In this document: positions 8,331 through 56,321 of the stretch, piece by piece | How the letters are laid out: every line of letters starts with the position of its first letter | How positions within the stretch are numbered: position 1 is the first letter of the stretch | IMG/VR virus record: IMGVR_UViG_3300011334_000503 | Source: an uncultured virus (IMG/VR IMGVR_UViG_3300011334_000503) | Lineage: Duplodnaviria > Heunggongvirae > Uroviricota > Caudoviricetes | Length of the DNA stretch: 64,000 bases | Strand: one strand, 5' to 3' | Position numbers and translations under genes: made by a program | The notes under the pieces: generated by a model | Told to the model about the DNA's origin: nothing | Databases searched by the model: none | The model's input: only the letters and a program-made list of their open reading frames with translations

Positions 8331-8960
8331 CTATCTTATGCAGCACTCGCCTGATACATTACAAATGATCTCAGAGATCATCCTGTTCGCTTTGGAGTAC
8401 TTATTTTCTTTATCTATAGTTCTATTGATAGATTCGTTAAGTCCTGAGGTAGGTCTCATGTACGCTCCGTATGTAGATGGCTGCGATACAAAGTCCCAAC
8501 AGATCAAATCAAGATCGTCTTCTACTTGTACAAGACCTTCACCGATAGGCGATACCGATCCAAGTGCTCTTGAAGAGATACCAACTGTGATATTGTTTTG
8601 AAAAAGCTGCTTTAATATGTTCCCTGATGGTGTTGGTAGAATTTCTATATCTCCATAGAGTTCTTTTCCTTCCCACCAAAGTTTAGTTATATTGTGACTA
8701 ACGTTTTTAAGGTTAACAACACTTGATTCTGGATGATCTAATTCTCCTAAAGCTCTATTCTCAGCGATTGGTCCCTGCATGTACTTCTCTACCTGAGTAT
8801 GTAGTATGTCGTAAGGATATATCCTACGATTGGCATTTGGTTTATCGCAAGCTTGTACTAGTCCTGAAACAATCATGTTTCCTACTGCTGACTTTACGCT
8901 TTCGTTTATCCTTTTGGTAGGAATAAACATTGCATGCTCTATAAGAAGTTGCTTAGTCAT
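8331..8960 (-). CDS. Prohead protease (T4 gp21-like)
   Basis: NANRRIYP, ALGELDHP, VSH, GISSRALGS, WDFVSQPS. Confidence 0.95.
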   Translation of the reverse strand: MTKQLLIEHAMFIPTKRINESVKSAVGNMIVSGLVQACDKPNANRRIYPYDILHTQVEKYMQGPIAENRALGELDHPESSVVNLKNVSHNITKLWWEGKELYGDIEILPTPSGNILKQLFQNNITVGISSRALGSVSPIGEGLVQVEDDLDLICWDFVSQPSTYGAYMRPTSGLNESINRTIDKENKYSKANRMISEIICNVSGECCIR

Positions 8961-8961
8961 A

Positions 8962-10464
8962 TTATTTTACAGTTGTAGCTTTTAAAGATGTCACTGATCC
9001 GCCTTTTTGACTAATTTTTTTCTTGAGATCTTGTATAGCTTTGTTGCCTTGTCCAGCAGGAACAGTATCGAGTACTTCATCTGCGCCTTGAGCTGTTTTT
9101 GCTTTTATAACATCTACAGCTTCTTTTTTCATCTTAAATTTCTCTACAATAGTCTTAAACTTCTTTAGTAAAGTATGAATATCTTCTGGTTTGTATTCTA
9201 GAGTTCCTCCAAAAGTTTTTGCGTATGGATTTTTACCTGAGCTTTGATCTTTGTCCCAATTTGCCCACATTTGATCTCTTTCTGCTTTATCGGCATCCAT
9301 TTGAGCTTGGTTGTGCTTCTCTTTAGCAGCGTCTAATACGTTAAGCGTGTAATCTTTTTGATTTCCGTCTTCTAATTCAACTGTTACGATAGATCCTTTT
9401 CTTTCTATTACGATTCCTGTTCCGTCTGGGGTCATGCATTCGTGACCTTTATAGAAATCCGTCCTTTCTTGAGGAGTTGCTCCGCCGATGCCACCACCGG
9501 TTCCGCCATCGTTCTCTTTTATACTATCTTTTTTTTTAAAAAAGTTTAGCATTTCATTGATCATGGTCTCTTTTGTTTCGGACTTCATTACATCCTTAAC
9601 TCCAGTAGGCTTTTTCTTACTACCTTTCATCTCTTTAACGCCCTTTGGCTTTCCTTTTCTGTTTTCTGTCTTAGGAGTAGAGGTATTTTTCTTTTCGTCA
9701 GCGTGACCCTTGATCTTTTTCATCTCATTGTCTTTGTCAACGAAATTATCGCCTTTAACCGGCTTCATTGAGAGTCTCTTATCGTCTTTTTCGATCTGTT
9801 TAGCGTTAGCTAGCTGAGTGTATCTATAAGCCAAAGGATCTTTTGCCATTTTCTTAGCAACTTTCTCTCTAACTTTCTCGTAAGATATGTTATCAAGCAC
9901 TTTAAGCTTAGCCATTTCGTATTCTACGCCTCTTTTGAATTCGTAAACGTTTAATCTGTCTATGATTTGAGCAGTAGTAAGATCGTGAGCTTCGTTTAGT
10001 GAATTTTCTTTATATATAATGTCGTCTAAATCTCCAACAAAAGCAACTGCGGCATATTTTGGTTTAAACATTCCATAAAGATCGACTATGTCGACGTGAT
10101 CCATAGCTCTAGAAGCCTTTTCGTGTTCTTCTGGAGATAATGACATTGCTGATAACTCATCTTCAAACATATTCATCCACGCGTCTTTATCTTCTTCTGA
10201 ACTATCTTTTGTTACTTCGTTTATTTCAGCATTGCTGTCGTAAGCTGCTCCTTCGTGATCAGGAGGTGCTTGACCATGTTGCATCATGGCCATAGTATAG
10301 CCTTCGCTAATCACTCCTTTGTTTTTTAGTATTTTAACTGCATCTTCGTAAGAAGTCAAGTTGCTTATCCAAGGAAGACTGTCATCTTTCCTAGCTTCGT
10401 AAAGAAAGGATTGCTTTGAAACTTTTCCGTTCTTATGGTTCTCGTATAATTTAGCTATTGTCAT
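8962..10464 (-). CDS. Hypothetical head-associated protein
   Basis: Long ORF between portal and protease; several L/I-x-E sites. Confidence 0.6.
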   Translation of the reverse strand: MTIAKLYENHKNGKVSKQSFLYEARKDDSLPWISNLTSYEDAVKILKNKGVISEGYTMAMMQHGQAPPDHEGAAYDSNAEINEVTKDSSEEDKDAWMNMFEDELSAMSLSPEEHEKASRAMDHVDIVDLYGMFKPKYAAVAFVGDLDDIIYKENSLNEAHDLTTAQIIDRLNVYEFKRGVEYEMAKLKVLDNISYEKVREKVAKKMAKDPLAYRYTQLANAKQIEKDDKRLSMKPVKGDNFVDKDNEMKKIKGHADEKKNTSTPKTENRKGKPKGVKEMKGSKKKPTGVKDVMKSETKETMINEMLNFFKKKDSIKENDGGTGGGIGGATPQERTDFYKGHECMTPDGTGIVIERKGSIVTVELEDGNQKDYTLNVLDAAKEKHNQAQMDADKAERDQMWANWDKDQSSGKNPYAKTFGGTLEYKPEDIHTLLKKFKTIVEKFKMKKEAVDVIKAKTAQGADEVLDTVPAGQGNKAIQDLKKKISQKGGSVTSLKATTVK

Positions 10465-10476
10465 GCTAATAAATAT

Positions 10477-10605
10477 TTATCTTCCTTGTCCACGATAAGT
10501 CCTTTCAGATCTATCGTGTTTATTGAAGCTTTTTTGTGATTTTCCTTTTTTTCTTTTACCAAAACTTATTTTCGTTGCGTTACTTGAACCTTTTGCCTTT
10601 GCCAT
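10477..10605 (-). CDS. Small very basic 42-aa protein (not in ORF track)
   Basis: Hand translation MAKAKGSSNATKISFGKRKKGKSQKSFNKHDRSERTYRGQGR; fills the gap between flanking genes. Confidence 0.7.
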   Translation of the reverse strand: MAKAKGSSNATKISFGKRKKGKSQKSFNKHDRSERTYRGQGR

Positions 10606-10617
10606 GACTATTTAAGT

Positions 10618-11709
10618 TTATAAAGATTTCATTTTTTTGTATGCTTCTGCTATACTTTTCTTCATACTTTCCATTGCTTTAGAAGATGAAGAGTATTCTG
10701 TCTCGTTAAGATCTGATTTTAGATTTGAAGCGTACTCTAAAATGTGATTTATCTCTTTTAGTTTTTTGTTAGCAAGCTTAGTAGCCTCTTGAAACTGTTG
10801 TTTTTTGCTTCTAACTTTGATTTCGGTCTTAAGTCCCTCTTTTATTGGTTCTTTTTCCATTTCTTTCTTTTCTTTCTCTTTTTCTTTTTTTTCTCTCTTT
10901 TTTATCTCACTACCTTGCAATCTTAATTGATCGTGAGGTATCATCATCTGCCTTTCGTAAGTAGAACCTCCGCCTTTAGTTACATTAACAGCTACTAAGT
11001 CATCATCAAAAGAAATGACTGTACCGTAGCTTTTATCAGGCCATTTTCCTACTATTTCGACTTTATCTCCAATTTTGAATTCGCCTTGTTTAGTTTCTTC
11101 TCTTTCGTTTATTCCAGCTGCTGCGGCAAATTCATCATAATCGTGAGGATAAGGTTCGCTCATCCATCCTAAAAACCTTCTATAAAGATCAGGAGCTTTG
11201 TCTTTTACATATGTCAATAGCTTTTCTACTTTATCTTTGTCTTTTGTAGATATTAATTCATTAAATTGATCTTCGTTTAGGTTCCAAAGATCTTTATATT
11301 GGAATCCGCCTTTGTCTTTTGTGTGTCCAGCTCTGAATCCTTTTACTTCTTTATATCCTGAATTAGAATCTTCGCTAACTTCTTTGGTATATCCGTACTT
11401 ATATTTCTTAGCTGGAACGTCAAGACCTGGAAGATAGGCTTCGCCTCCTCCAGTAACTGACATCTCTTCCATTTCTCCGACTATTTTTACATCTTCAGCC
11501 ATATCAAAGTGATTGCTAAATACAAAATCTTGAAAGTCTTCAAAATCTTCTATACTTAGCGAGTAATACTGACCTTCAAAATCAATTATGTCTGCAAACT
11601 TGTCATTAAACATATCATCTAACTTCTGATCTGTGATAGCGAAAACCACCTGATCGATGGTTTCGTTCTCTGACATTAATCTTTTGAAGTGAGACTGCAT
11701 GCTACTCAT
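10618..11709 (-). CDS. Hypothetical head-associated protein
   Basis: ORF track; multiple L/I-x-E sites. Confidence 0.6.
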   Translation of the reverse strand: MSSMQSHFKRLMSENETIDQVVFAITDQKLDDMFNDKFADIIDFEGQYYSLSIEDFEDFQDFVFSNHFDMAEDVKIVGEMEEMSVTGGGEAYLPGLDVPAKKYKYGYTKEVSEDSNSGYKEVKGFRAGHTKDKGGFQYKDLWNLNEDQFNELISTKDKDKVEKLLTYVKDKAPDLYRRFLGWMSEPYPHDYDEFAAAAGINEREETKQGEFKIGDKVEIVGKWPDKSYGTVISFDDDLVAVNVTKGGGSTYERQMMIPHDQLRLQGSEIKKREKKEKEKEKKEMEKEPIKEGLKTEIKVRSKKQQFQEATKLANKKLKEINHILEYASNLKSDLNETEYSSSSKAMESMKKSIAEAYKKMKSL

Positions 11710-16846: not shown

Positions 16847-18811
16847 TTAAGATGCTTTAACAAACACCGAAGATACATTAGTTTCTGACTTGGCGTGACT
16901 TATTAGATTTCTTACAAACTTGTCTCTTTGCTCTTCTGTCATAAGACTTAGTTGGTATAGCAATTCTATATTCATGTAGTTGCTAGTTCTGTTAGCTAAA
17001 GGTGCCGCTAAAAAGGATTTGGTAAATTCATCCTCTTTCATTTTGCTTTTTAGTAAAGAGATCTTTTTATATTTGTTATATAGATTTTTTACTACTGTTT
17101 CGTCTGCGTCTTTACATGCAGCTAATACTTCTGTTTGTTCTGGTAAGAATTCTAAGTTACTTCCAGCTTGTACTAGCGCTCTATTTACAGATCTACCTCC
17201 TATTTTACCTCCTGCAGCCTCTTTAGCTTTTATTTCACCTTGCCAACTTGTTACGTTTGAGAAGTTTCTAAACTGTACTTTACCGCCGGTGTAATTAATA
17301 TATACATCTAAAGACTTAAAGAAATTTGTGTCTTTTGGTCCTAAACCTTCGAACTTTTCTGGTCTCTCTACTTGCTTAAGATTATACACTTCTATATTAC
17401 ACTCTCCTGTACACTTTTTAAGAGACACTCCTATAAGCTGTTTCGATTTAAACTTAGAGATCATCCACTTATTTAACTTTTGAATTTCAGTATTTACTGG
17501 TATTTCGTCGATAGCTAAATCGTTAGTCGCCATCCAAATGTCTGCAGGATTCCACTTATTAACGTTTATAGCGCCTTGCACGTACTTTAAACAAGACTTA
17601 GCGGCTCTATCAACATCTGTAGCGATACCAGCACCTCTATAAAATTTAAAGTTGCCTGGATACTTCACGGCTAATCCGTTTGCAGTGCTTATAAGAGACT
17701 TTCTCCAAGAAGGATCATTTTTTATAAAAGATACCATCTCTTCTAGAGAAGATGTAGTGTCTATTCTCTTGGTAGCCTTAGCGTAATTTTTATCGTTTAA
17801 ATCTTTTTCAGATATTTCTGATCCTTTATTATATCTAACTGCGTTAACTAAACACTGAGCCGACTCTTGAAGAGCTGTTTTTGCAGCTCCTCCTCCAGAT
17901 CCTGAACTGCTTTCTCCGTAGTGTCCGGTTACTGACTTCTTTGCTAAACTAACGTATTTTTTCGTGGATACTAGTTTACCTTCATCATTAACTGTCATTA
18001 CTTCGAAGTGATAAGGTCCTTTTGGATCTGAATATGCATCTTTTTTGCCACTTGGTATATCACTTATATTTTTGTAGACTATAGCACCCGATAGTTTTAG
18101 TACAGATTTTACCTTTTCGTCTGTTTCAGGCTTCGCAGTATAATAAGGATTTGGTCCTTTTTTAGTTGTGTAATCCGGGGTTATTGTCAATTCTGTAACT
18201 ATTGATTTTGTTAATAGACCTTCTAAAATTCTTTTGTTTTCTGCCAACTCTTCTTCACCTCCTGCTTCTGCACCAGCTGTTACTTCTTCTTCACCTCCGG
18301 ATGGTAATCCTCCAGTCGCTCCACCTTTTTCTGCCCAATCTCCTTCCATTCCAGTATTTTCTGAATCTCTTGTTCCTTCTTCTGCTCCTTCTGCTCCTTT
18401 GGTTTTCAAAGGAGTTCCGAATCTAAGAAGTCTTGCGATCGCCATCATGCACCTTTCTTTCTCACCGATTCCTGCTAAATAATACCTTTTTCCACTTATG
18501 ATTGCTTCGTAAATGTTCTCTTTCATATAGGTCATGAAAAAGCTTTGTCCATTGTGCAACTGAATCTTGAAGGTAGTTGGCTTTGGCGCTATGTAGAATA
18601 TTGCGTCAACAAATTCTCTGAAATCTTTAGTCATGAGCTCAGTCATGATTTCATTCAAAGTACTGTACTTTTTTAGTATGAATCCCATAGGATCCTTTTC
18701 AAAAGCAGCATTCTTGGGTTTTTCCTTAACTTGTGTAGTCTCCGAATCCACAGTAACTGTTTCTTCGTCTGCTTCTAAGATCATCCTTTTTAAAATTTCT
18801 AAGTCTTTCAT
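16847..18811 (-). CDS. Two-domain protein with C-terminal PD-(D/E)xK-like nuclease domain
   Basis: QES...KWNPADIW...IGVSLKK; acidic Gly/Glu linker; N-terminal MILEA. Confidence 0.5.
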   Translation of the reverse strand: MKDLEILKRMILEADEETVTVDSETTQVKEKPKNAAFEKDPMGFILKKYSTLNEIMTELMTKDFREFVDAIFYIAPKPTTFKIQLHNGQSFFMTYMKENIYEAIISGKRYYLAGIGEKERCMMAIARLLRFGTPLKTKGAEGAEEGTRDSENTGMEGDWAEKGGATGGLPSGGEEEVTAGAEAGGEEELAENKRILEGLLTKSIVTELTITPDYTTKKGPNPYYTAKPETDEKVKSVLKLSGAIVYKNISDIPSGKKDAYSDPKGPYHFEVMTVNDEGKLVSTKKYVSLAKKSVTGHYGESSSGSGGGAAKTALQESAQCLVNAVRYNKGSEISEKDLNDKNYAKATKRIDTTSSLEEMVSFIKNDPSWRKSLISTANGLAVKYPGNFKFYRGAGIATDVDRAAKSCLKYVQGAINVNKWNPADIWMATNDLAIDEIPVNTEIQKLNKWMISKFKSKQLIGVSLKKCTGECNIEVYNLKQVERPEKFEGLGPKDTNFFKSLDVYINYTGGKVQFRNFSNVTSWQGEIKAKEAAGGKIGGRSVNRALVQAGSNLEFLPEQTEVLAACKDADETVVKNLYNKYKKISLLKSKMKEDEFTKSFLAAPLANRTSNYMNIELLYQLSLMTEEQRDKFVRNLISHAKSETNVSSVFVKAS

Positions 18812-18869
18812 CTTTTTTTATGCGAATCTACACATTTATCAGTAAGGTAAAAAAATATATCTTTGTGGT

Positions 18870-19469
18870 CTAGGCTAGCAAAGTATAGTACTCTTTGAAA
18901 TGCTTTATCCTGTCTGGCAATCCTATGGTTCCGCCGTTAACTCTTTTTGTAACTTCTGTCACTATAGCATCTGTTGCTCCTTTATCCGCGATCTTGTGTA
19001 GTCCGTTCTTGTGAAAAAACCAAGCTGCAGAAAGCAATGGGTATTGCGTAGCTACTAAGTCCGGATTGTCTGTGATATTTTCAGCAACAACCAAGTCAAA
19101 GGCTTTATAGTTATCTTTACCAGTAAGCTGAATGTAACCACGACCGCGATACTTGTAGCCTTCACCAGTGGCCTCAGGACCGTTGCCCATACGACCTCCG
19201 TAAACGAGATTAGCGATCTTTTCTGGTTTTCTTTCATACAAAGCTGCTTTTTCTGGCGTAGGAAAATACTTTTTAAATATACCCAATAAACCTTTAGCTC
19301 CATAGTTTAAGTTCTCATTGACTGCTTTAAATCCTCCGGATTCGTGGCCGGCTTGAGCCAAGAAATGAGCTAATCTTAGTGGAGTGTTTAGTTCAAACTT
19401 TGCAATTGTGTCTGGAAGCTGAGCTATTACAGCATCAGGAATGTGTCCTTTTAGTTTATTTATGTCCAT
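18870..19469 (-). CDS. GH19 chitinase-like endolysin
   Basis: AHFLAQAGHESGGF, ENLNY, YRGRGYIQLTGKDNY, VTKRVNGG. Confidence 0.93.
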   Translation of the reverse strand: MDINKLKGHIPDAVIAQLPDTIAKFELNTPLRLAHFLAQAGHESGGFKAVNENLNYGAKGLLGIFKKYFPTPEKAALYERKPEKIANLVYGGRMGNGPEATGEGYKYRGRGYIQLTGKDNYKAFDLVVAENITDNPDLVATQYPLLSAAWFFHKNGLHKIADKGATDAIVTEVTKRVNGGTIGLPDRIKHFKEYYTLLA

Positions 19470-19878
19470 TTTTTATTATTTTTTCCATTATTGATGTAAG
19501 TGAATCTTCTGTTTCTTGTTCTGGTTTTTCTTCTTGTCCGTACTCGTGATAGTTCTCAGCAGCTTGACTTATAAAGTTAGCTGCATTCGTGATGTGATCC
19601 TGAATCCACGCTGGAATATCTTTCTCATCGTTACCCAACTTAGCCTTGAGCTCCATTGCGTGCTTGATGATGGTCTCTATGCTGTTGTTAGCCATAGAAA
19701 CTTCGTGATCCATTCCGTCTTCTTCTATTTTAGCGCCAGCTCTCAACTTTTCAAAGTCTCCAGCATCAATCTTATCAGCCGGTGGATCTAGTTTTGCGAT
19801 CTTTTGTTGCTTAGGAGAAAGTTCTTTTTCTTCTATTTCTTGCAACAAAATACGTTGCCATTGTGAAATACTATTCAT
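19456..19878 (-). CDS. Hypothetical, putative internal head protein
   Basis: N-terminal ILLQE; DHEVSMA and IPAWIQDHIT segments. Confidence 0.6.
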   Translation of the reverse strand: MNSISQWQRILLQEIEEKELSPKQQKIAKLDPPADKIDAGDFEKLRAGAKIEEDGMDHEVSMANNSIETIIKHAMELKAKLGNDEKDIPAWIQDHITNAANFISQAAENYHEYGQEEKPEQETEDSLTSIMEKIIKNGHK

Positions 19879-20165
19879 TATTTTTTCTTTTTAGATTTGC
19901 TTGCTTTTTTCCATAAAGTCTTATCTGCTTTTCTAGCTCCGCCTTTACCAGTAACAAAAGAATTTACTCTTGCCATTGCCCATTGGTGTTGACCAACTCC
20001 TGGACGGTGGCCTGTTTTCCATGCTCCTAGACCTTTTGCGTAAACGCTTTTTAGTACAGTTTTTGATATACCAGTAGATTTTGCTTTGTTCGCTAAAGCT
20101 TTTTCTGTTTGAGGATCGTACTCAAAAATAAACATCTCTTTTAGTATATCTAGTAGATTTATCAT
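19878..20165 (-). CDS. Basic hypothetical protein, putative internal head protein
   Basis: MINLLDILKE leader; VY.KG.GAWKTGHRPG...QWAMARVNSF motif recalled from uncharacterised large-virus proteins. Confidence 0.65.
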   Translation of the reverse strand: MINLLDILKEMFIFEYDPQTEKALANKAKSTGISKTVLKSVYAKGLGAWKTGHRPGVGQHQWAMARVNSFVTGKGGARKADKTLWKKASKSKKKK

Positions 20166-20172
20166 TGTTTTG

Positions 20173-20694
20173 TTATGCTTTTATTTCGCATCTTTGTAGA
20201 AAATCTTTTGTATCAACCACAATTCCTTCTTTTTTGAAATCTTTAAGTCTATCTATCACCATTTTTTTACGATTGTCGATATCTTTGACTTGTTTAAGCA
20301 TATCAACGATTCCGTCTATCATTTCTTTTTGATCTGATGTTTCTTCGTTTACGCTTTCTTTTTTACCAAATCTCTTTTCGTAAGCAGAAGTGGCAGCAGA
20401 CTTTTTAGTCTTGTATTTCTTAGTCTTAGCTTTATCTGAGTAGTCAGCTTCCCACTTTCCATAAGCTGATGGATCGTCTGATTTTAACTTTTTTACTCGA
20501 TTAATTTCTTTCTTCATTGCAGCGGCGTCCTTAGTTAAATACGCAGCTTTTACCTTCGCTTTTTTCTTTTCCTCTTTAACTCTTACGCAATTGGGAACCA
20601 TTCTATTCCCTTTCTTTTTTAGTCCTTTCTGTGAATATCCGTCCCAGCAGGCTTCTGATAATACTTGATCTAATATTTCTTCAAGACTGATCAT
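20173..20694 (-). CDS. Lys-rich hypothetical protein, putative internal head protein
   Basis: VLSE leader; CWDGY..KG.KKKG.RMVPNCV motif. Confidence 0.65.
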   Translation of the reverse strand: MISLEEILDQVLSEACWDGYSQKGLKKKGNRMVPNCVRVKEEKKKAKVKAAYLTKDAAAMKKEINRVKKLKSDDPSAYGKWEADYSDKAKTKKYKTKKSAATSAYEKRFGKKESVNEETSDQKEMIDGIVDMLKQVKDIDNRKKMVIDRLKDFKKEGIVVDTKDFLQRCEIKA

Positions 20695-21461
20695 ATTGTA
20701 TCTTTATTTATTTTTGTGTCTTTCTCAAACTTACTATAAGAAGCTTTATAAGACTTCTGCGTTTCGTCATTTACGTTTTTGGTATACTGCCAGTTCCAAT
20801 ACAGATCGTTGTTTGGTTTGAATCCGTAAAACTTGTGAACTTGTTTCTGTATATCTGTTACCACTTCTCCGTTCCAGTTTTGACCTGTGCAGATGAATCC
20901 TGTTTCTATATCTTTAATGATATTCGATTCACCTAGAGTGTGATGTCTATTTTCTAACCAAGTCAACCTTTCAATTAAGTTTTGGTAGTACATGTTAGTC
21001 TGTCCCCATCTTATAGAACTAAAAAACACGACTGCGTCTGATTCGAGTAGCTCTTTTGATATTTTCCACAGTTCGTCTTTTGGGTTATTGTAACTTGCCC
21101 AACACCTATGTTGTCCGGAAGGATTTTTTTCCTTGTCTTTAAGTTTAGCTTTTGGCAATCCACAGCTGTTACCGTCTTTTCTTGATACGTTGCCTTCGCA
21201 GGCTACTATGTTAAGTTCAGGAACATCAATCAATATACACTTATCGCGCAATTGATCTTGTATATACATCGCAATCATTTTTGATTTCGGTATATCTATG
21301 TCTTTATCATCCCAATTGTATCTGTTAGAGCAACTTAGCAGCAAAATTTTGTCTTTTTTCTTAAGAACATCAATAGTTTTAGTTATTGCCTTCCAAGCAT
21401 CAGATTGCATTTGCTCTTCGTGCAACATTATTTCTCTTACTATTTCAGTTAGACTTATCAT
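20691..21461 (-). CDS. Flavodoxin-like NAD(P)H-dependent FMN reductase family protein
   Basis: LLLSCSNR, ACEGNVS..C..C, LLESDAVVFFSSIRWG, LIERL; start re-called to ATG 21461 (MISLTEIVRE) just after upstream stop. Confidence 0.7.
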   Translation of the reverse strand: MISLTEIVREIMLHEEQMQSDAWKAITKTIDVLKKKDKILLLSCSNRYNWDDKDIDIPKSKMIAMYIQDQLRDKCILIDVPELNIVACEGNVSRKDGNSCGLPKAKLKDKEKNPSGQHRCWASYNNPKDELWKISKELLESDAVVFFSSIRWGQTNMYYQNLIERLTWLENRHHTLGESNIIKDIETGFICTGQNWNGEVVTDIQKQVHKFYGFKPNNDLYWNWQYTKNVNDETQKSYKASYSKFEKDTKINKDTI

Positions 21462-21462
21462 A

Positions 21463-21783
21463 TTACCATTTTCTACATGACCAATACCTTGCTTTCCAAC
21501 GAGGTCCTGGATTAGTATCACATCTGTGTCTCGCTCTAAAACTTTTCCTTCTTGCAGGATTGTTCTTTTTTATCTTTACTCCTTTTTGTCCGAAGTTTAC
21601 TTTAACTACGTTTCCTTTAGCGTTCTTAACGTAGACTTTAAATTTCTTAACATCACCAGCCATCGGCTTTCCCAACTGAACTTTGCGTCCTTTGTACTCG
21701 GCCTCTTGTAAAACGTTTACGTGTTCTAAGATATACTCTTTTAAACACTGAGGACAAAATTCTCCTTCGTGAAGTTCATGCAT
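21463..21783 (-). CDS. Basic hypothetical protein
   Basis: KKFKVYVK...KVNFG...RRKSFRARHRC...ARYWSCRKW; LQE site before the conserved part. Confidence 0.7.
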   Translation of the reverse strand: MHELHEGEFCPQCLKEYILEHVNVLQEAEYKGRKVQLGKPMAGDVKKFKVYVKNAKGNVVKVNFGQKGVKIKKNNPARRKSFRARHRCDTNPGPRWKARYWSCRKW

Positions 21784-23613: not shown

Positions 23614-24099
23614 TTATTTTAATTCTATATATGCTAACTTAGCTTTAGATACTGCTTCCGCAAAAGACTTTTTTCCGTTTTCTAGTAAGTATTCTTTTGG
23701 ACTAATTCCAAAGTAGTGATCAAACTCTTTGTTAAAGCTTTCGTATATTACTTCGTTGTGTTGTCCGTATTCTCTAAGTAGTATTCCAGCTTGAGCATTA
23801 GCCTCGTTTTCTATTTCAGATCCAGTTTTACCTGAATCTGATTTTAATCTTCCTTCTTCGTTTTGTTTGTGATGAACCATTTCATGGCAAAGTGTTCTTA
23901 GAATGTCTGCCATATTCCTATTCTTAATATATACGAGGATCTCTGAAGTCTGAGGATTATACTGTCCAAAAGACCTCATCTGTCTGCTCCACTTATTATC
24001 GTTTATGAAAAATACCTTAGGTAACTCTTCAAGTCCTAAAGAATCACTAGCAAATCTTATAAAATTTGTAGCTATCGCTAATTTTTCTTGATCTTCCAT
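23614..24099 (-). CDS. Zincin-like metallopeptidase (HExxH)
   Basis: RTLCHEMVHHKQ followed by E.EANA. Confidence 0.75.
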   Translation of the reverse strand: MEDQEKLAIATNFIRFASDSLGLEELPKVFFINDNKWSRQMRSFGQYNPQTSEILVYIKNRNMADILRTLCHEMVHHKQNEEGRLKSDSGKTGSEIENEANAQAGILLREYGQHNEVIYESFNKEFDHYFGISPKEYLLENGKKSFAEAVSKAKLAYIELK

Positions 24100-24103: not shown

Positions 24104-26584
24104 TTATCTTTGAACTGCTCTATTTGCTGCAGTGAATCCTCCTCGATTAACTAACTTTATTGGTCCTGATGGATCGGATATCACGTATCCTTCGCCGCCT
24201 GATTCATCTCCTATAGAAGCTTTTACTCCTAGATCTTGAGAATCTAACTGAGCTATTATGGAGTTCTTTAGGTTGTTTATAGCTTTTACTGCATTGAATA
24301 TCTTTTCTAGATCTGACTGATTCTGTTGAGAATACTCTATCATTTTGGTTTTTTTACCATCACTAATAGTCTTCTCATTCTCCAAGAAATTAATAAACTC
24401 TTTAGCACTAAGCGTATTCATGCTTGCGGCCTTTGAATTCGTAAACTTGTATAGCATGTCAGCGTAATCACTCATTTTTTCTTGACTAAGCTTGCTTTTA
24501 TCGAGCAGTTTGTCTGCAGATTTAGCGCTAGAGACAGCTGATTTAGCTGCGCTCATTAACTTACTGTCTATCTTAGCTCCACTTTTTGGGAACACCGGTG
24601 AGAACACCATGAGTCCTCCTGCTGGATTGAACTTGTACTGCTTTGCGTCCTTAACTCCTGATTCTTTGCCGTCTAAGGATTGATAAACGTGAGGAATAAC
24701 TCCAACTTCGCTTTTGGTTATCTGCTTTCCTAGTTCGCTATTATCAGGAATCTTGTACGTAGTAATATTCGGTTTGAATACGTATTCTCCGTCTACAACT
24801 TCTGGTTTGCTTTGGTATAATAAGTCTCCTTTGAAGTATCCAGTGAGTCCTTTTGGCCAAGAGTTCTTGAACACATCGTAGGCATTTGCCATGCTTTTTG
24901 CGAAAGCAAAATTGGGTTTTGTTCCGCTCTTTTCGGCAGATTTTATTGCCCTATTCTTGAACATCGTCTCTATTTCTTTAGCGCTCTTAGCTTTTCCGTC
25001 GTATCCTTTTGCTGTGAATCCACTCTTGTCTGTTAGAATAAAGTTACCGTTTTCGTCTACTCCAAACACTACGGCTGGTGATCCGTCCCATTTTACGGAT
25101 GTGGTTGACGGGTCTTTTGCTGCTCTATCCATTACTTGTAAAGCTTTCTCTGCGCCCTTAGATCCGTCCCAATATATTAAGTCTTCTGGGTGTTGGATTC
25201 TGGCCGATGCGGCCTCGAGTAACATGAATAATCTTTGTATCTTTTTTAGGGACTCTTTGAGATCTTCTTTTTTAGGAAGTTCAAGACCGTCTTTTGCTAG
25301 ATCCTGTCTCGCTTGTGCTACCCAATCTTCGTACTGCGGCTTATTCTTTATAAATTTAACGATTGCTTCTACGCTTGTTAAGTCTTCAGGTTTTGCTCCC
25401 TGACCAAGTAACTTAGTTGCTATTTCGCTAGGATTTTTACTTATTACTTTGTTTGTTGCTCTATCTACTAGACCATTAAGATAAGACCATTTCATACCTT
25501 GAGCTTTCGCTATACTAGCCAATACTAAGTGCTTGTGAACTCCTTTGTAAGGACTATCCTTAGCTCCGCCTTGCATAGAGAACTTCATAAATTCAACATC
25601 ATCGTTAAACATAAAGTCTGATTGTACAAATCCATTTTTAGGATCTCCTGCTATTGGAGTCTTTACATGGACATTAGTTCCTGACTTTTTAATGTCTGCT
25701 TTATCTATTCCGTTTGATGTAAGCTTATTTATTAATGAATTTTGATCTATTTTATTTTTATCTACTCCAAGATCGAGGTCTCCGCTATCTGCTTTTTTGC
25801 CAGTAGTTCCAAGCATGCTGTCTTTAAGAGAAAGACCAGACTTGTCTTCTAACCAGTCTATCGTTTTGTCTATGTCTGCTAGTTTGATTCTTTGTGTTCC
25901 TTGAAATACATTTCCTCCCTCAACCAATAAAGTACGAATCAGAGTAGAAAGGACCACCCTCTCTTCTATAATCTCGTATATTGGTTTCGCCTCTTTCATA
26001 GAGGTTGCGAATTTTTTTTTAAGCATTGACTCTATTTCAGAATCATACCAACCAAAAATATCTTTGAACTGTTTTGGTGTTGATTTTGGATTAGATAACG
26101 CTTTTCTTATATTTGTTCCACTCATTTCACCTATTCCTTCAATATCGTAAGAAACGTGAGGAGCTACTACTAGATAACCATGTTCTGTGTACGGTTTTAA
26201 TTCTTTGTTGGGTTCGTACTTTTGAAAGTATGTATCGCCTCCGTCTTTTTTCTTGCCTATCTTGAATCTCGCATCCTCTTGCATATCCTTATCTCCTACC
26301 ATAAACACTATTGCTGTAGTCTCTGGATCATATTTTGATGTGATCTCTTCTGCTTTGTACGGATTTTTTACTTGAACTAACTGATTCGTTATTCCGTACT
26401 TGTTAGCGACAGATCTTTTTTCATTAAAATTAAGAGGACTTTTTGGAGGATCTACCTTATCTGAGGTTGCAATATACGTCTTATCAGATCCAAACTTTTT
26501 TTCTAACCACTTAAAAGCATCATAGTGGTGGCGTCCCATCGGTTGAAAACGACCTGGATATATCGCTATGATATTTTTTATCAT
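24104..26584 (-). CDS. Three-domain protein: cytidylyltransferase-like + Pol-beta-type nucleotidyltransferase + ATP-dependent ligase-like domain
   Basis: IYPGRFQPMGRHH; LGTTGKKADSGDLDL; KWDGSPA...FKGDLLY...EGYV...KLV. Confidence 0.7.
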   Translation of the reverse strand: MIKNIIAIYPGRFQPMGRHHYDAFKWLEKKFGSDKTYIATSDKVDPPKSPLNFNEKRSVANKYGITNQLVQVKNPYKAEEITSKYDPETTAIVFMVGDKDMQEDARFKIGKKKDGGDTYFQKYEPNKELKPYTEHGYLVVAPHVSYDIEGIGEMSGTNIRKALSNPKSTPKQFKDIFGWYDSEIESMLKKKFATSMKEAKPIYEIIEERVVLSTLIRTLLVEGGNVFQGTQRIKLADIDKTIDWLEDKSGLSLKDSMLGTTGKKADSGDLDLGVDKNKIDQNSLINKLTSNGIDKADIKKSGTNVHVKTPIAGDPKNGFVQSDFMFNDDVEFMKFSMQGGAKDSPYKGVHKHLVLASIAKAQGMKWSYLNGLVDRATNKVISKNPSEIATKLLGQGAKPEDLTSVEAIVKFIKNKPQYEDWVAQARQDLAKDGLELPKKEDLKESLKKIQRLFMLLEAASARIQHPEDLIYWDGSKGAEKALQVMDRAAKDPSTTSVKWDGSPAVVFGVDENGNFILTDKSGFTAKGYDGKAKSAKEIETMFKNRAIKSAEKSGTKPNFAFAKSMANAYDVFKNSWPKGLTGYFKGDLLYQSKPEVVDGEYVFKPNITTYKIPDNSELGKQITKSEVGVIPHVYQSLDGKESGVKDAKQYKFNPAGGLMVFSPVFPKSGAKIDSKLMSAAKSAVSSAKSADKLLDKSKLSQEKMSDYADMLYKFTNSKAASMNTLSAKEFINFLENEKTISDGKKTKMIEYSQQNQSDLEKIFNAVKAINNLKNSIIAQLDSQDLGVKASIGDESGGEGYVISDPSGPIKLVNRGGFTAANRAVQR

Positions 26585-26604: not shown

Positions 26605-26832
26605 CTATGGTAATGTAGTAGTGGTAGTAGTCGTACTAGTTGTAGTAGTTGTAGTCGTAGTAGGTGGAGGTGTTGGTGGTACTCCTCCAGCTAAAGCGTC
26701 TCTATCGGTTGAAGCGTAAGCTTTTGGATTTGTAAGTCCATTCAAACTTTGATAAGTGTCTGGAATAACTTGTCCAGAAAAGACGCTCCTATCGGATTTT
26801 GATTTTGCTAGTAAGCTAGAATTCTTTGCCAT
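26605..26832 (-). CDS. Small protein with Pro/Thr-rich C-terminal tail
   Basis: PPTPPPTTTTTTTTSTTTTTTTLP; ATATTTAT motif just upstream of ATG. Confidence 0.65.
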   Translation of the reverse strand: MAKNSSLLAKSKSDRSVFSGQVIPDTYQSLNGLTNPKAYASTDRDALAGGVPPTPPPTTTTTTTTSTTTTTTTLP

Positions 26833-26890
26833 GATAATAAATATCGTTTTTAAATTTTATGCGTGTTTATACACTATTACATATAAATAT

Positions 26891-29800
26891 CTAGTTTGTG
26901 TGTTGTACGTTAGATCTACCGTCTATCTTGTTTATTTCTATTTGGTGATCTACAGCGTCTCTCATTGAGTCTATGTGAGATATAATCATGATAAATTTGA
27001 ATTGATTTTTTAAGTGATCGAAGTAAGATACAATGCTTCCTAAGTTGTTTGTGTCTAATGCTCCGAATCCTTCATCTATCGCTATAAAATTAGGTCTTGG
27101 TAGTGATGATATATTGATAAGAGATGACCTTATAGCTAGACTTGATACAAACTTCTCCATTCCTGAAGTTAGTTCTATAGGCCAGTACCTCTCGTTATCG
27201 TAGGCTATATAAGCATTGATATTCTTGTCGTCAGGATAAAGCACTACTTGAAAATCTACTAGCTGTTGAAGTATAGCGTTTATCTCATCTTGCAATTGAG
27301 GTATTGTATTTGATATTAATTCGTGAGGAACTCCGTCTCTGTGAACTGCTTCGCTATAGTACTTATAAACATCGTACTTGGATTGAAGCTTTACCAACTC
27401 AGTAAGATCGTTTGTGTACTTGTCTCTATTTGAACTAAGGGAGTTTACTTTTATCAGAGCCTCAGTAAGATCGTCGCTTACTATTTTAAGGTTGTTCTCT
27501 ACTGTTTTATACTCTAGTTCGTAAGAATCTATCCTAGATTGCACTTGAGCGTTCTGTTCTATCTTCTTTTTTTCTTTTCTGTAAGTATCTAGCTCAGACT
27601 CTTTGTCTTTTATTTTTTGTTTTATGTTTGTTTGATCTATTTGTACCTTCTGAAGATCTGATTGTAACTTTAATGACTTCTTTTCTTTATCATTTATTAT
27701 TTGTAATAAGGCATCGTACTCTCTTTTGTGCTCCTCTACATTACCTAGCTTTTTAATCTGCTGATCTATAATTTCGATGTCTGTTTCTATTGTGTCTTTT
27801 TGTTTTATAAGATCCTCATGACTCTGTTTTGTAGAAATAGCGTCTTTTACAAATACATTATTCATACAATAAGAACAATTCTCGTCGTATTCCAACTCAT
27901 TTAACTTATCTAGTTTATCTTTTTGATGGGATAAGTGAATATTAAGCTTATTAAGCTCTATATTTGCGGTATTTTTAAGTTTATTTAGATCTTTTAGCGA
28001 TTGTAGTCTTTTATTTAGTTCTTCTATTTGTACTCTTTCTAATGTATTGTTATAAGTCGCTAAATGTTCTTTTATAGTAGTATGTTCTAATGCTATTATA
28101 GCTTCTTCAGTAACTTGTTTCTTTAGATCTTCTTCTAGAGACAACACTTCTGATCTTACTTGCTGTTCGTCTATCGCTTTAGAGCTTACTGATTGAAGCA
28201 TGATGTGCTCTTCAAGTATTCTTTTATTTAGACTATCCTTATCAATAATTAAATTATCTTTTTGGATCTTTAGATCGTCTATTTTTTGGTTTATTTCTGT
28301 TTTTTCTTGATCTATTTTAGATATTTCAGTAGAATGATCTACTTTTTGGTACTGTTTCATTACTGCAGAGATATCTTTCATCTCGTTGTTAGCAAAGTCG
28401 TACATAGTTTCGAACACATTGATGTCCAGGAACTGACTGAGTAGCTCTTTTCTATCCTTTTGGTTCATATCTATGAATCCAGAATTAGCTCCCTGTGCGC
28501 TCAGGGCAGTCAGAGTGAAGTCCTCGTAGCTTCCTAACACAGATCTTATGCTAGCATTAGTGTCGTTTCTTTCTTTACCGTTTAATGAGATTTTATTCCC
28601 TAAATCATCGGTATAATAGAAGTTAACTTTTACCCTAACGTTACCATTCTTTTCTCTCAATCCATCTCTTTCTATTACATAGTTTTTGCCATCTAACTCA
28701 AAATCTAGCTTACAATAAAACGTATTTGAAGAGCTATTTAGCACTTGAGAAGATCTATTCGTCTTAGAGCACTTGTCAAATACACAATAACTAAGAGCAT
28801 CCAGTAGAGTAGACTTGCCTGATGCGTTTGCTGCAAATATACCATAAGTTCCAGCCATATCAGTAAAGTCTATAGTATTATCTTTACCGTAACTAAACAT
28901 GTTTTCGAACTCAAATTTCTTTGGCAGCCAAACTATATTCCTTGAACTCTCTGTTTTTGGTAACTGTTGATTAATATAAGCATTTATAGATCTTATGCTT
29001 TCTTTTTGATCATCAGTTAGCTTATGCTTTTTACTTAAAAACTTCTCTATTAATGAGTTTTGCTGATGTTCGTCTCTTACATCTACTACTCTGCTTGATC
29101 TATGACTTGGATTATTTAATTCTTGTGGACCATTTATTCTCTGTATTGATTGCTCTACTATGGTTCTTTCGCTTTTAATTCCACTAATGATCTCTTTTAG
29201 TCTAATCTGATCGGTATTAGTATGTCGAACTCTAAGATATAAATTAGTAGGTAGATTTTCAGGAATGGGATCGTGCTTTCCATTTTCTACATACACAGTA
29301 TAGAATGCTGTATCGTTTGGTATACTAACGTATTCGCTAGATTTGTCTTTTAAGTTCCATACTAGAATACCGTGATCTAAGCTCTCTCCGTGATTCTGTT
29401 GAATTAGCGATCCAGGGTATGCTATTGTTTTCTCTTCATTAAGATATTGTAACTTATGAATGTCTCCAAGTAGAGTGATATCAAATCCATCGAAGTGTTT
29501 AGTTGTTATCTTTCCTCCTTCTAACTTGAATCCTACTTCAGTAAGCGCATTCTGTACAGCACCATGATACATACAGATCTTATAATCAGCCTCTATATCT
29601 GAAGCACATATATAATTATCGTCAAACACCGACCAATGACAGAAGGTCACATTTCCTATATTGAATACTTCGCTGTTCACTGAGTAATATAGATTCTTGT
29701 GATTAAGCGCATTGACTATTGGAGTCAAGGCATCCATTCTGTGGTTATTATTTAGATTAGCATCGTGATTTCCAGGAATAAGTAAAACTGGAGCTATATC

Positions 29801-30043
29801 TGCCAATGACTTTAGTAGATCTTGCACTTCGAATACTAGCTCAGGAGTTACGTCTGTTTTAGAGTGAACTATGTCTCCAGTCAATACTATTAGAGACTTA
29901 TCGTCTACTGACCAAAAAATCTTTTCTTTTAGCAGATGAAAAACTCTTCTGTATTCTTTGTGTCTTTTAAAATTCCTAATATGAATATCGCTAACGTGAT
30001 ATATCTTATTAACTTCAGATAAATTTAATACGTTCTTAATCAT
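26891..30043 (-). CDS. Fused Mre11/SbcD nuclease - Rad50/SbcC ATPase (gp47-gp46 fusion)
   Basis: SDIH, GD, PGNHD, GDIH phosphoesterase motifs; NASGKST, CSYC hook, TSGME, IDEGFG, ISH. Confidence 0.92.
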   Translation of the reverse strand: MIKNVLNLSEVNKIYHVSDIHIRNFKRHKEYRRVFHLLKEKIFWSVDDKSLIVLTGDIVHSKTDVTPELVFEVQDLLKSLADIAPVLLIPGNHDANLNNNHRMDALTPIVNALNHKNLYYSVNSEVFNIGNVTFCHWSVFDDNYICASDIEADYKICMYHGAVQNALTEVGFKLEGGKITTKHFDGFDITLLGDIHKLQYLNEEKTIAYPGSLIQQNHGESLDHGILVWNLKDKSSEYVSIPNDTAFYTVYVENGKHDPIPENLPTNLYLRVRHTNTDQIRLKEIISGIKSERTIVEQSIQRINGPQELNNPSHRSSRVVDVRDEHQQNSLIEKFLSKKHKLTDDQKESIRSINAYINQQLPKTESSRNIVWLPKKFEFENMFSYGKDNTIDFTDMAGTYGIFAANASGKSTLLDALSYCVFDKCSKTNRSSQVLNSSSNTFYCKLDFELDGKNYVIERDGLREKNGNVRVKVNFYYTDDLGNKISLNGKERNDTNASIRSVLGSYEDFTLTALSAQGANSGFIDMNQKDRKELLSQFLDINVFETMYDFANNEMKDISAVMKQYQKVDHSTEISKIDQEKTEINQKIDDLKIQKDNLIIDKDSLNKRILEEHIMLQSVSSKAIDEQQVRSEVLSLEEDLKKQVTEEAIIALEHTTIKEHLATYNNTLERVQIEELNKRLQSLKDLNKLKNTANIELNKLNIHLSHQKDKLDKLNELEYDENCSYCMNNVFVKDAISTKQSHEDLIKQKDTIETDIEIIDQQIKKLGNVEEHKREYDALLQIINDKEKKSLKLQSDLQKVQIDQTNIKQKIKDKESELDTYRKEKKKIEQNAQVQSRIDSYELEYKTVENNLKIVSDDLTEALIKVNSLSSNRDKYTNDLTELVKLQSKYDVYKYYSEAVHRDGVPHELISNTIPQLQDEINAILQQLVDFQVVLYPDDKNINAYIAYDNERYWPIELTSGMEKFVSSLAIRSSLINISSLPRPNFIAIDEGFGALDTNNLGSIVSYFDHLKNQFKFIMIISHIDSMRDAVDHQIEINKIDGRSNVQHTN

Positions 30044-54434: not shown

Positions 54435-55235
54435 TTAATTGTGTGATTGTTGACTAATATAAATATCGTTAGCTGATAAATTTCTTGCTTTTATTCGATC
54501 GAATACAGCGCTAACCTGCTGAGTATAGAAGTTCTCGTCTGATACTAGCGGAGCCTCTTCGTTAACCCATTCTTCCTTAGCGTGACCGAATCCCATGATC
54601 TTGATGTACCTGTGGCCTCTCTGATTCGAAGCGATAGACTTTACTTTCTCCGTAGCTTCCAACTGAGTCCTTGCCATAACGCAACAAGCGTAATCCCTAC
54701 ACACGTTCCAATTGTTAATGATAAGCCTTTCATCTTCGTAGTGTAGGTAGTATACGAGCATTGGTACGTATTCGCTAGACTCTCTCTTTTCCCTTTCCAT
54801 TTCGGCTCTTGCCCAATCAACGTACCAGTTAAGAACGTGGTCATCTACTTGGGTATCGTACTGAAACAATTGAAAGACTTTCCAAGAATCTAGCGCGTAC
54901 TTACCCACGCCGTACATTTTTTCTAATTCAAATAATGGAATCTCAGCAGAATCGTACTTTCTAACTAGCTCTATCCACTGCATAGAGAACGTCTTCCACG
55001 CTTTGGCCCGTTTGTTATAGAATCCTAAGATCTTGATCATCTTAGCGATCTCTGAGTCCTCTGCTAACACTAGCTTTTCTGGAGTTGGGAACCTCTCAAA
55101 GAATTCGTGACGAATCTGGTCTACTTGTTTGTGACTTGTTTGATTGAGCATGAAGCATACCATTAACATTTTCCATGGGTCTTCGCGATACTCTTCTTGA
55201 CGTGTCTCGTAGGGAGAGGTTGGTAGTTTGTACAT
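54435..55235 (-). CDS. HhH-GPD DNA glycosylase (MBD4-like) with C-terminal extension
   Basis: QE..REDPWKML..CFMLNQTS, LGFYNKRA, GVGKYALDS..VF, DDHVL..Y. Confidence 0.85.
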   Translation of the reverse strand: MYKLPTSPYETRQEEYREDPWKMLMVCFMLNQTSHKQVDQIRHEFFERFPTPEKLVLAEDSEIAKMIKILGFYNKRAKAWKTFSMQWIELVRKYDSAEIPLFELEKMYGVGKYALDSWKVFQLFQYDTQVDDHVLNWYVDWARAEMEREKRESSEYVPMLVYYLHYEDERLIINNWNVCRDYACCVMARTQLEATEKVKSIASNQRGHRYIKIMGFGHAKEEWVNEEAPLVSDENFYTQQVSAVFDRIKARNLSANDIYISQQSHN

Positions 55236-56207: not shown

Positions 56208-56236
56208 ACTGCTATAAATATGTGAAAATGTAATTG

Positions 56237-56321
56237 TGCCCCAGACGGGAATCGAACCCGTACTCGCTTTCAGCGAACAAGATTTTAAGTCTTGCGTGTC
56301 TACCGGTTCCACCACCGGGGC
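56237..56321 (-). tRNA. tRNA-Leu(TAA)
   Basis: GCCCCGG acceptor, CAAGA-CTTAAAA-TCTTG anticodon arm, long variable arm, GTTCGATTC; CCA not encoded. Confidence 0.92.

Follow-up and report, generated by a model that had tools for sequence, protein, structure and literature searches.

Bacterial LigD carries a polymerase, a ligase and a phosphoesterase in a single chain, and phage T4 targets its internal proteins and Alt to the capsid as cargo that is trimmed by the gp21 protease. Among viruses of eukaryotes, PgVPolX of Phaeocystis globosa virus 16T is reported (PMC5537341) to be a family-X polymerase (PolX) fused to an NAD+-dependent ligase and to carry out base-excision repair. Repair systems that combine RlaP nucleotidyltransferases (NTases; PF10127) with an RNA ligase are described for bacteria and jumbo phages in two further reports (PMC7824862; bioRxiv 10.64898/2025.12.29.696909), and in the second, RlaP enzymes add one to two nucleotides to damaged RNA, which an RNA ligase then seals. 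Here we describe a gene that shares features with each of these systems, in a 64,000-nucleotide stretch of DNA from an uncultured virus (IMG/VR record IMGVR_UViG_3300011334_000503), hereafter the window. The gene is an open reading frame (ORF) on the minus strand, 24104..26584, that runs from ATG to stop in a single frame and encodes 826 amino acids (protein P0001). We predict, with moderate confidence drawn from motifs and modelled folds, that it encodes a three-part modular nucleic-acid end-repair enzyme that would add a missing nucleotide and then seal the break.

The original prediction for this gene, made from the letters of the sequence, was of three unrelated nucleotide-transfer enzymes made as one chain, cut in the prohead and injected. 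Our analysis supports a single chain with three unrelated nucleotidyl-transfer folds, and the evidence on cutting in the prohead and injection points both ways. The three domain ranges given earlier agree with the boundaries that we obtained from alignment and folding, and the strings quoted for them are all in the protein: PGRFQPMGRHH (residues 10-20) in domain 1, GTTG...SGDLDL (259-273) and VQSDF (320-324) in domain 2, KWDG (498-501), GDLLY (586-590), EGYV (798-801) and KLV (810-812) in domain 3, and LLVE-GG (219-224), LKE-S (450-453) and MLLE-AA (454-459) at the junctions. Homologues of the 826-residue protein numbered 835 at E<=1e-3, many of them 810-830 residues long with an identical domain layout. 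Residues D269, D271, D323, K498, D500, G501, D587, E798, G799, K810 and R814 were invariant across an alignment of 23 sequences. Because so many relatives share the gene and its catalytic-looking residues do not vary, the fusion ORF is not a product of chance.

Domain 2, in the middle of the chain, resembled the polymerase core of family X. Its AlphaFold2 (AF2) model, built from 44 sequences, had a mean predicted local distance difference test (pLDDT) score of 93.1. When the model was compared with the PDB by Foldseek, all matches listed (ranks 1-50, repeat chains omitted) were Pol lambda, mu or beta, and the best had E=4.5e-5, with template modelling (TM) scores of 0.54-0.57 over 184-199 columns. 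The exhaustive VIA structure search ranked nine family-X polymerases first, including Pol beta (Z 10.1, 163 aligned), Pol lambda and the Thermus enzyme TthPolX (both 9.8), African swine fever virus (ASFV) Pol X (9.5, 154 of 176 residues) and terminal deoxynucleotidyltransferase (9.1), with 154-173 residues aligned for these five. Other members of the Pol-beta superfamily, namely terminal uridylyltransferases, cGAS/DncV-like nucleotidyltransferases (CD-NTases), poly(A) polymerase and the CCA-adding enzyme, aligned over about 90 palm residues at Z of 7.4 or below. Since the PolX matches span palm and thumb whereas those of other NTases cover the palm alone, we interpret domain 2 as a palm with a PolX-type thumb. 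The 8-kDa deoxyribose phosphate (dRP) lyase and fingers (helix-hairpin-helix, HhH) subdomains were absent by the VIA alignment, which enters Pol beta at residue 142, with just 11 residues of domain 2 preceding that point.

Sequence conservation in domain 2 agreed with this fold. G259, T260, G262, S267, G268, D269 and D271 were identical in 23/23 aligned sequences, as were Q321, D323 and M325. The Pol-beta pattern with a later Asp in VQSDF, as originally proposed, is therefore upheld by three invariant carboxylates (D269, D271 and D323) together with the fold matches, and the "Pol-beta-like" label can be narrowed to the family-X polymerase type on the Foldseek and VIA results. Stand-alone proteins of about 241 residues made up of domain 2 were common, with 478 found at E<=1e-5 among proteins of 127-406 residues.

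Domain 3 belongs to Pfam family DUF6267 (PF19782), which it matched at E=5.2e-38 (131.8 bits, cut-off 27), residues 463-825 spanning profile positions 4-375 of 376. The AF2 model of this domain was built from 52 diverse DUF6267 sequences and had a pLDDT of 95.6. In the exhaustive VIA search the first 24 of 50 rows were all ligases (Z 5.2-7.1), among them NgrRnl (5cot; 7.1, 189 residues aligned), TbREL1 (6.8), T4 Rnl1 (6.3), T4 Rnl2 (6.1), LigIII (6.0), LigIV and Trl1. NAD+-dependent ligases were absent from these 50 rows, a result with which use of NAD+ is still compatible. The original prediction had matched four strings to ligase motifs I, III, IV and V. For motif I the match is firm, with KxDG invariant in 52/52 sequences; for motifs III, IIIa, IV and V the candidates D587 (in GDLLY), F603-K-P-N, E798-G-Y-V and K810-L-V-x-R814 are conserved, and their assignment follows from order and strand position alone. 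D587, F603, H465, E467 and D468 were conserved in at least 90% of the 52 sequences. The case for a ligase is made by the ligase-only top rows and these motifs together. Just 16 residues remain after K810 in motif V, and the model closes with one short helix, so the domain has no oligonucleotide-binding (OB) domain.

DUF6267 proteins are widespread, with 1136 clusters (50% identity, E<=1e-3) and 116 cultured-phage records. A full-text literature search on "DUF6267" found no paper, and a literature search for PolX with ligase in jumbo bacteriophages found nothing related.

Domain 1 is, judged from profiles and predicted models, a viral adenylyltransferase of the PF01467/HIGH class, nearest to nicotinamide mononucleotide (NMN) adenylyltransferase (NMNAT) and phosphopantetheine adenylyltransferase (PPAT). 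It matched the PHROG 395 cytidyltransferase family at 1.4e-4, and a homologue of the same architecture, P0025, bears a precomputed PF01467 match. Feature matches in the ESM Atlas fell in PF01467 clusters in 28/30 cases, and the Atlas model of domain 1 aligned over 193 residues to a PF01467 cluster with TM scores of 0.79/0.86, both models being predicted. The top match of the family profile among PDB sequences was an NMNAT (2qjt, E=0.0048), with PPATs matching weakly, and relatives of domain 1 matched the NMNAT, nicotinate mononucleotide adenylyltransferase and PPAT models of NCBIfam, every one under its cut-off. In the region of the first motif, P10, G11, R12, F13, P15, H19 and H20 were unchanged in 16/16 close homologues. 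Other subfamilies retain the canonical P-H-x-G-H form (e.g. P-H-G-G-H, F-H-K-G-H), and the P-M-G-R-H-H of the window aligns with it through its last His alone, an alignment that bears out the earlier description of PGRFQPMGRHH as a degenerate HxGH motif. The second motif, S155-G-T-x-x-R160, resembles the ISxTxxR motif of NMNAT and PPAT. Coordinates of these and other features are given in Table 1.

Table 1. Positions of the fusion gene, its domains and motifs, and other features of the window
Feature	Position	Strand	Basis
Whole fusion ORF, 826 aa plus stop	24104..26584	-	ORF translation
Domain 1, residues 1-200; HIGH/PF01467-class adenylyltransferase, NMNAT/PPAT-like	25985..26584	-	Pfam, PHROG, ESM Atlas, family profile
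Degenerate HxGH motif PGRFQPMGRHH, residues 10-20	26525..26557	-	Homologue alignment
Second nucleotide-binding motif S155-G-T-x-x-R160	26105..26122	-	S155, G156, T157, R160 in 16/16 close homologues
Linker 1, residues 201-222, ending L-L-V-E222 right before G223-G-N	25919..25984	-	E222, G224 invariant (23 sequences)
Domain 2, residues 223-445; family-X polymerase-like palm and thumb	25250..25918	-	AF2, Foldseek, VIA
NTP/metal motif G259-T-T-G-K-K-A-D-S-G-D269-L-D271	25772..25810	-	23-sequence alignment
Third carboxylate D323 (in VQSDF)	25616..25618	-	23-sequence alignment
Linker 2, residues 446-457, with L-K-E452 and M-L-L-E457	25214..25249	-	E457 invariant (23 sequences)
Domain 3, residues 458-826; DUF6267, predicted ligase/capping-type nucleotidyltransferase fold without OB domain	24107..25213	-	Pfam, AF2, VIA
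Motif I K498-W-D-G, presumed adenylylated lysine	25082..25093	-	K, D, G in 52/52 diverse DUF6267 sequences
Helical insertion, residues 674-781 (~108), between motif III/IIIa sheet and motif IV	24242..24565	-	DSSP on AF2 model, domain residues 220-327
Motif IV E798-G-Y-V and motif V K810-L-V-x-R814	24155..24193	-	E344, G345, K356, R360 (domain numbering) in 52/52
75-aa ORF and promoter-like ATATTTATA upstream of fusion gene	26605..26889	-	Motif search; ORF itself 26605-26832
Prohead protease, Peptidase_S77, gp21-like, candidate processing enzyme	8331..8960	-	Pfam PF03420, E=1.1e-24
HhH-GPD base-excision glycosylase-like gene, which on a DNA substrate might act one step earlier	54435..55235	-	Pfam PF00730, E=9.3e-10
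(A)TATTTATA motif starts	5289, 12582, 23029, 26882, 37029, 45419, 51744, 54458, 58471	gene's orientation	Motif search

Several results weigh against these assignments, most of them from sequence searches. Domain 1 scored under the cut-off of Pfam CTP_transf_like (E=0.02, 15.5 bits, cut-off 21), and its HxGH motif is degenerate. Neither Pfam nor NCBIfam linked domain 2 to a polymerase family at E<=1, and sequence searches of the PDB (single sequence and two profiles) retrieved no PolX chain at E<=10. The same three queries for domain 3 matched no ligase among solved structures, and the sequence libraries placed this domain in no ligase family. Z scores up to 7.1, the highest reached by domain 3 in VIA, are typical best scores even of unmatched models. 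Foldseek, which placed domain 2 with PolX, gave nothing at E<=1e-3 for domain 3 (best E 0.22), and only VIA grouped domain 3 with ligases.

The three modules probably work together, since relatives show them in fusions of a different order, with one module exchanged for another, or on genes that lie side by side. Relatives carry the adenylyltransferase at either the N- or the C-terminal end of the chain, and in P0040 the C-terminal copy is of the same subtype as the N-terminal copy of the window. A crude motif census of 261 proteins, biased by the route of retrieval, gave the ligase-like module (Lig) alone in 80, PolX-Lig in 53, PolX-Lig followed by the adenylyltransferase (CT) in 42, CT-PolX-Lig in 35 and no motif in 17, the rest being minor classes. 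In cyanophages S-CAM4 and S-SZBM1, DUF6267 adjoins a cytidylyltransferase gene, near primase-helicase and MazG. The gene for a domain 2 homologue in Atu_ph07 (hhalign E=4e-21) overlaps another that matches PF09414 (RNA_ligase) weakly. We also considered the gene upstream of DUF6267 in the cyanophages as a PolX module and rejected it (S-CAM4 gp099, BLASTP E>10; S-SZBM1_142, hhalign probability 0.9%); S-CAM4 gp099, which lies beside DUF6267, is a homologue of the window ORF 16847-18811 (31% identity, E=2.5e-23). Between the DUF6267 profile and the RNA-ligase-like gene of Atu_ph07, hhalign aligned the motif I stretch alone (E=0.056, probability 1%).

Replacement of modules was also seen among close relatives of the window, phages in which the genes flanking the locus are 78-95% identical to those of the window. 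In records L008-L011 (around 10001), another adenylyltransferase subtype substitutes for the first 145 residues, and the flanking genes are 77-95% identical to those of the window; in L011 the remainder of the fusion protein is just 55% identical to the window protein. In record L012, a 564-residue ORF (9283-10977) has a window-type domain 1 joined directly to a different domain of 340 residues, with no PolX. This alternative domain bears K-I-D-G and E-G-I-V-V, and its junction again reads L-L-A-E-G-G. It falls near ESM Atlas clusters in which 21-24% of members have DUF6267; hhalign with the DUF6267 profile found no link to it. From these sequence comparisons we read the fusion locus as a recombination mosaic. 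The gene next downstream of the fusion (23614-24099, minus strand) encodes 161 residues with H-E-x-x-H and weak matches to DUF6782, M78 and SprT-like families, all under cut-off; its homologue in L012 (10980-11852) has 290 residues, with an extra C-terminal part containing D-M-D-G-V-L that looks by eye like a haloacid dehalogenase (HAD) phosphatase.

In the mechanism that we propose, the family-X-polymerase-like domain would put the missing nucleotide or nucleotides on a 3'-OH by means of a two-metal site formed by D269, D271 and D323. The DUF6267 domain would next seal the break through a lysyl-nucleotide intermediate at K498. The HIGH-class adenylyltransferase would provide or regenerate a nucleotide cofactor, the simplest guess being NAD+ from NMN and ATP; it could, as no more than an idea, replenish NAD+ for a ligase that uses it. 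The three folds, the conserved catalytic residues and the evolutionary coupling of the modules come from the analysis itself, whereas we infer the reaction order, the cofactor role and the substrate.

As to the substrate, we regard DNA as an even call, RNA as possible and less probable, and anything else as improbable. The genomic context fits DNA, with primase and SbcCD-like neighbours and an HhH-GPD glycosylase-like gene in the window, although any link between the latter and the fusion is one that we only infer. A search of other carriers' genomes found no canonical ligase (PF01068, PF01653) in 2/2 complete cyanophage genomes or in a 63%-complete relative, G002; PA5oct and Atu_ph07, which have the domain 2 homologue only, do carry a ligase of PF01068/PF01653 type. 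The absence of an OB domain, with RNA ligases as the nearest structures, weighs against a DNA role, and the PolX fold of domain 2 weighs against an RNA role. Overall, a DNA gap-fill-and-seal role seems at least as likely as the RNA or tRNA end repair or the NAD or signal-nucleotide roles suggested originally.

On another reading the protein serves to repair RNA or tRNA: the PolX-like domain would replace nucleotides lost from a cleaved 3' end and DUF6267 would reseal the strand, countering host anticodon nucleases or other RNases. We consider this unlikely. In its favour, the best neighbours of domain 3 (NgrRnl, TbREL1, T4 Rnl1 and T4 Rnl2) are RNA ligases, and the domain lacks an OB domain. 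The domain 2 homologue of Atu_ph07 that lies beside a weak RNA_ligase gene fits as well, as do the published RlaP-plus-ligase systems of jumbo phages. However, the RNA and DNA ligases differ by only about 1 Z unit as matches to domain 3, which is a tie, and domain 2 matches family-X DNA polymerases across palm and thumb, with no Pfam match to RlaP (PF10127) at E<=1. In addition, no end-healing kinase or phosphatase was recognised beside the gene in the window, and the surrounding genes are those of DNA metabolism.

A second layer of the proposal concerns the junctions between the modules, which the original prediction had likened to gp21 protease sites. We think it plausible, if a little less than even in probability, that the chain is a precursor cut by the S77 prohead protease after E222 and E457 to give three capsid-carried enzymes. 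A hydrophobic-x-Glu (h-x-E) motif was present almost without exception at all junction types, far above background (0.017 per position; 0.136 within 8 residues). Directly ahead of GGN, [LIVMF]-x-E was found at 144/147 domain 2 starts. Stand-alone domain 2 proteins had h-x-E before GGN in 115 of 120 cases, and the other five comprised four starting M-GGN and one without GGN near its start. Cultured homologues of domain 2 begin M-S-G-N (PA5oct) or M-G-G-R (Atu_ph07), and the N-termini of the stand-alone and cultured forms suggest that a free G-G-N end could be common to all forms. Ahead of R-I-x-H-x-E-D, a conserved N-terminal element of domain 3, [LIVMF]-x-E lay within 8 residues in 151/152 internal and 38/44 N-terminal cases. 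At the permuted junction from domain 3 to the adenylyltransferase, h-x-E was present in 22 of 24 examined, of 47 found. Both junction Glu residues lie in stretches of the models with pLDDT <50 (the first 4 and the first 6 residues), and the S77 protease was also found in 5/5 carrier records.

Leader-like starts and virion proteomes point in the same direction. Starts of the form M-(K/R)-h-x-(E/D)-h were seen in 20/49 stand-alone DUF6267 proteins versus 15/205 other proteins, and several small window proteins at 16.8-21.5 kb start with similar leaders. The annotation of PA5oct gp253, a homologue of domain 2 (hhalign E=2.9e-15), describes a structural protein detected by electrospray ionization tandem mass spectrometry (ESI-MS/MS); the PA5oct paper counts 93 virion-associated proteins. 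NMNAT-like or cytidylyltransferase proteins are reported for the virions of four cyanomyoviruses: a cytidylyltransferase is listed in the proteomes of S-SZBM1 and S-CREM2, and the S-CREM2 paper says likewise for S-CBWM1 and S-SCSM1.

Other observations weigh against packaging or cleavage. The cyanophage cytidylyltransferases are just distant kin of domain 1 (BLASTP E=0.002 and 0.36), and SSZBM1_141, the DUF6267 protein, is not among the 30 S-SZBM1 virion proteins. The S-CREM2 authors warn that such enzymes may be co-purifying contaminants. The window protein has no N-terminal targeting leader, its first residues (M-I-K-N-I-I-A-I-Y-P-G) forming strand 1 of domain 1, and the leaders of stand-alone domain 2 proteins are short (4-9 residues). 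Finally, G-G-N-x-F after the junction Glu is conserved in the manner of a functional motif, beyond the needs of a cleavage site.

A rival account is an intact three-domain protein that stays uncleaved in the cytoplasm and acts on DNA during replication and repair, in base-excision or gap repair or in nick sealing in phages without a canonical DNA ligase, with h-x-E serving as domain caps. The missing leader and the conservation of E-G-G-N-x-F as one block would suit this account; the adjoining primase and SbcCD-like gene, the glycosylase-like gene and the lack of PF01068/PF01653 matches in the two complete cyanophage genomes and G002 would all fit, and PgVPolX itself acts as an intact fusion. 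We nevertheless hold it to be rather unlikely, in view of the OB-less domain 3 with its RNA-ligase neighbours, the model-disordered segments in which the invariant Glu residues sit, the return of the same h-x-E motif at a third, permuted junction, and the homologues in virion proteomes. It is very improbable that the protein joins no nucleic acid and is a nucleotide-cofactor or signal counter-defence enzyme (e.g. for NAD+ rebuilding or for destruction or mimicry of signal nucleotides). This could be argued from NMNAT being nearest to domain 1, from phage NAD+ synthesis by HIGH NTases as published and from the variability of the locus on almost identical phage backbones, a frequent trait of counter-defence genes. 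However, the window showed neither a Nampt-like nor a Nudix partner, CD-NTases and oligoadenylate synthetase-like enzymes match about 90 palm residues at Z of 6.4 or below compared with 154-173 residues for PolX, and the ligase motifs suggest a polynucleotide substrate.

Returning to capsid cargo, the fullest version of that proposal would have the head protease cut the chain after E222 and E457, and a miniature polymerase X would be injected with the DNA along with the NMNAT-like enzyme and a ligase of a new class. The NMNAT-like enzyme would rebuild NAD+ from ligase-released NMN, so that breaks in the incoming genome or in defence-cut RNA could be filled and sealed even in an NAD+-depleted cell. 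We offer this whole sequence of events as speculation that we think improbable in its entirety.

The gene lies in what is, from its gene content, a distant T4-like phage. Head genes of T4 type in the window include a Gp23-type capsid protein, a Gp20-type portal, a large terminase and the Peptidase_S77 prohead protease. By comparison of the capsid protein, the closest cultured phages are Flavobacterium phage immuto (54% identity), Microcystis phage Mel-JY01 and Rhodothermus phage RM378; the nearest genome record to the window, G001, is a 30-kb fragment. The fusion gene comes after a primase gene and a fused Mre11/Rad50 (SbcCD-like) gene and is followed on the same strand by small unknown genes, then an endolysin and then the head module. 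The Mre11/Rad50 gene (26891-30043, minus strand) is one 1050-residue ORF that combines a calcineurin-like phosphoesterase (Mre11/SbcD-like, residues 13-222) with an SbcC/Rad50-like ATPase; in T4 these functions are on two separate genes. Immediately upstream of the fusion, a 75-residue ORF (26605-26832, minus strand) has at its C-terminus a run of prolines and about 20 threonines, and is conserved in relatives (55-100% identity). No promoter-like motif separates the two, and they are therefore probably co-transcribed.

Nine gene starts are preceded, at a distance of 12-57 nucleotides, by the sense-strand 8-base motif (A)TATTTATA, which in each case shares the orientation of the gene and may be a promoter element of the window phage. 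It is the reverse complement of the late-promoter word of T4. A T4-type late promoter, TATAAATA, was considered and rejected, as beside genes this word falls on the antisense strand and TATTTATA on the sense strand; the window holds 15 occurrences of TATAAATA versus 8.45 expected. Given this antisense placement, we do not claim the fusion as a late gene.

Other genes of the window are noted here as observations. Short leaders ending in hydrophobic-x-Glu are present in the minus-strand ORFs 16847-18811, 19878-20165 and 20173-20694 and at an internal Met of 20691-21521, and from its sequence the block 16847-21521 (minus strand) may be a head-cargo block. The 95-residue DUF5824 protein at 19878-20165 (minus strand) matches the C-terminal end (605-675 of 678) of a family that PHROG names cytidyltransferase, which hints that this small domain is fused to cytidyltransferases elsewhere. 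Three tRNA genes (Leu-TAA, Leu-TAG and Met-CAT) lie at 56236-57269 (minus strand), and G+C rises from about 0.34 to 0.43-0.46 at 56-62 kb. Near the tRNA stretch are T5orf172, DUF932 and a glycine-cleavage H-protein gene (63086-63469). On the plus strand are a family-6 glycosyltransferase (49807-50580) and a SegE-like GIY-YIG homing endonuclease (51765-52244).

Among the genes of aquatic T4-like phages that still lack an explanation, DUF6267 is one of the most widespread. If it is a ligase tied to a phage polymerase X and an NMNAT-like enzyme, a new ligase family would be named, and it would be a candidate for the DNA ligase whose canonical form was not found in the two complete cyanomyovirus genomes tested. 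The fusion would then be a phage counterpart of the viral repair modules of ASFV and Phaeocystis globosa virus, with a phage polymerase X previously unseen. Should the junctions prove to be genuine protease sites, the fusion would also give tailed-phage capsids their first example of an enzyme cargo made in polyprotein style.

PgVPolX is alike in having a viral family-X polymerase core and a ligase in one chain, and gap filling and sealing have been shown for PgVPolX. In contrast, its ligase is a recognisable NAD+-dependent DNA ligase, whereas the fusion has an OB-less, RNA-ligase-like DUF6267 domain. PgVPolX has dRP/AP (apurinic/apyrimidinic) lyase activity, while domain 2 is without the 8-kDa and fingers parts; it also lacks a third adenylyltransferase domain and head-protease-type junctions, and belongs to a giant virus of eukaryotes instead of a phage. 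ASFV Pol X (PDB 5hr9) is closer in size to domain 2, being a minimal palm-and-thumb polymerase of about 175 residues that also lacks the 8-kDa and fingers parts, and it too is teamed with a viral ligase for repair. However, the ASFV polymerase and ligase are on separate genes, the ligase is a conventional DNA ligase, and no sequence-level similarity between ASFV Pol X and domain 2 was detected.

The RlaP systems share with the fusion a Pol-beta-superfamily NTase that is genomically tied to a ligase. They differ in that domain 2 is not of PF10127 and has a PolX-type thumb, and in that the ligase is DUF6267 and not of the Rnl1 or Rnl2 families. NgrRnl of Naegleria gruberi (Rnl5), TbREL1 and T4 Rnl2 are the best structural neighbours of domain 3 and have an adenylyltransferase domain without an OB domain, as is predicted for domain 3, but identity is only 10-13%, the Z scores are modest, and about 108 residues of mostly helical sequence are inserted ahead of motif IV in domain 3. 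The NgrRnl/Rnl2-type families are not known to have the R-I-x-H-x-E-D element. LigD likewise unites in one chain a repair polymerase and a ligase with a third module for end processing, but its polymerase has the primase-polymerase fold, its ligase bears an OB domain, and a phosphoesterase takes the place of the HIGH NTase as the third module. The capsid cargo of T4 compares with the fusion through the same protease family (S77), the hydrophobic-x-Glu at every module border and the leaders on many stand-alone DUF6267 proteins. The fusion differs in having no N-terminal leader, and T4 cargo consists of single enzymes and not three-enzyme chains.

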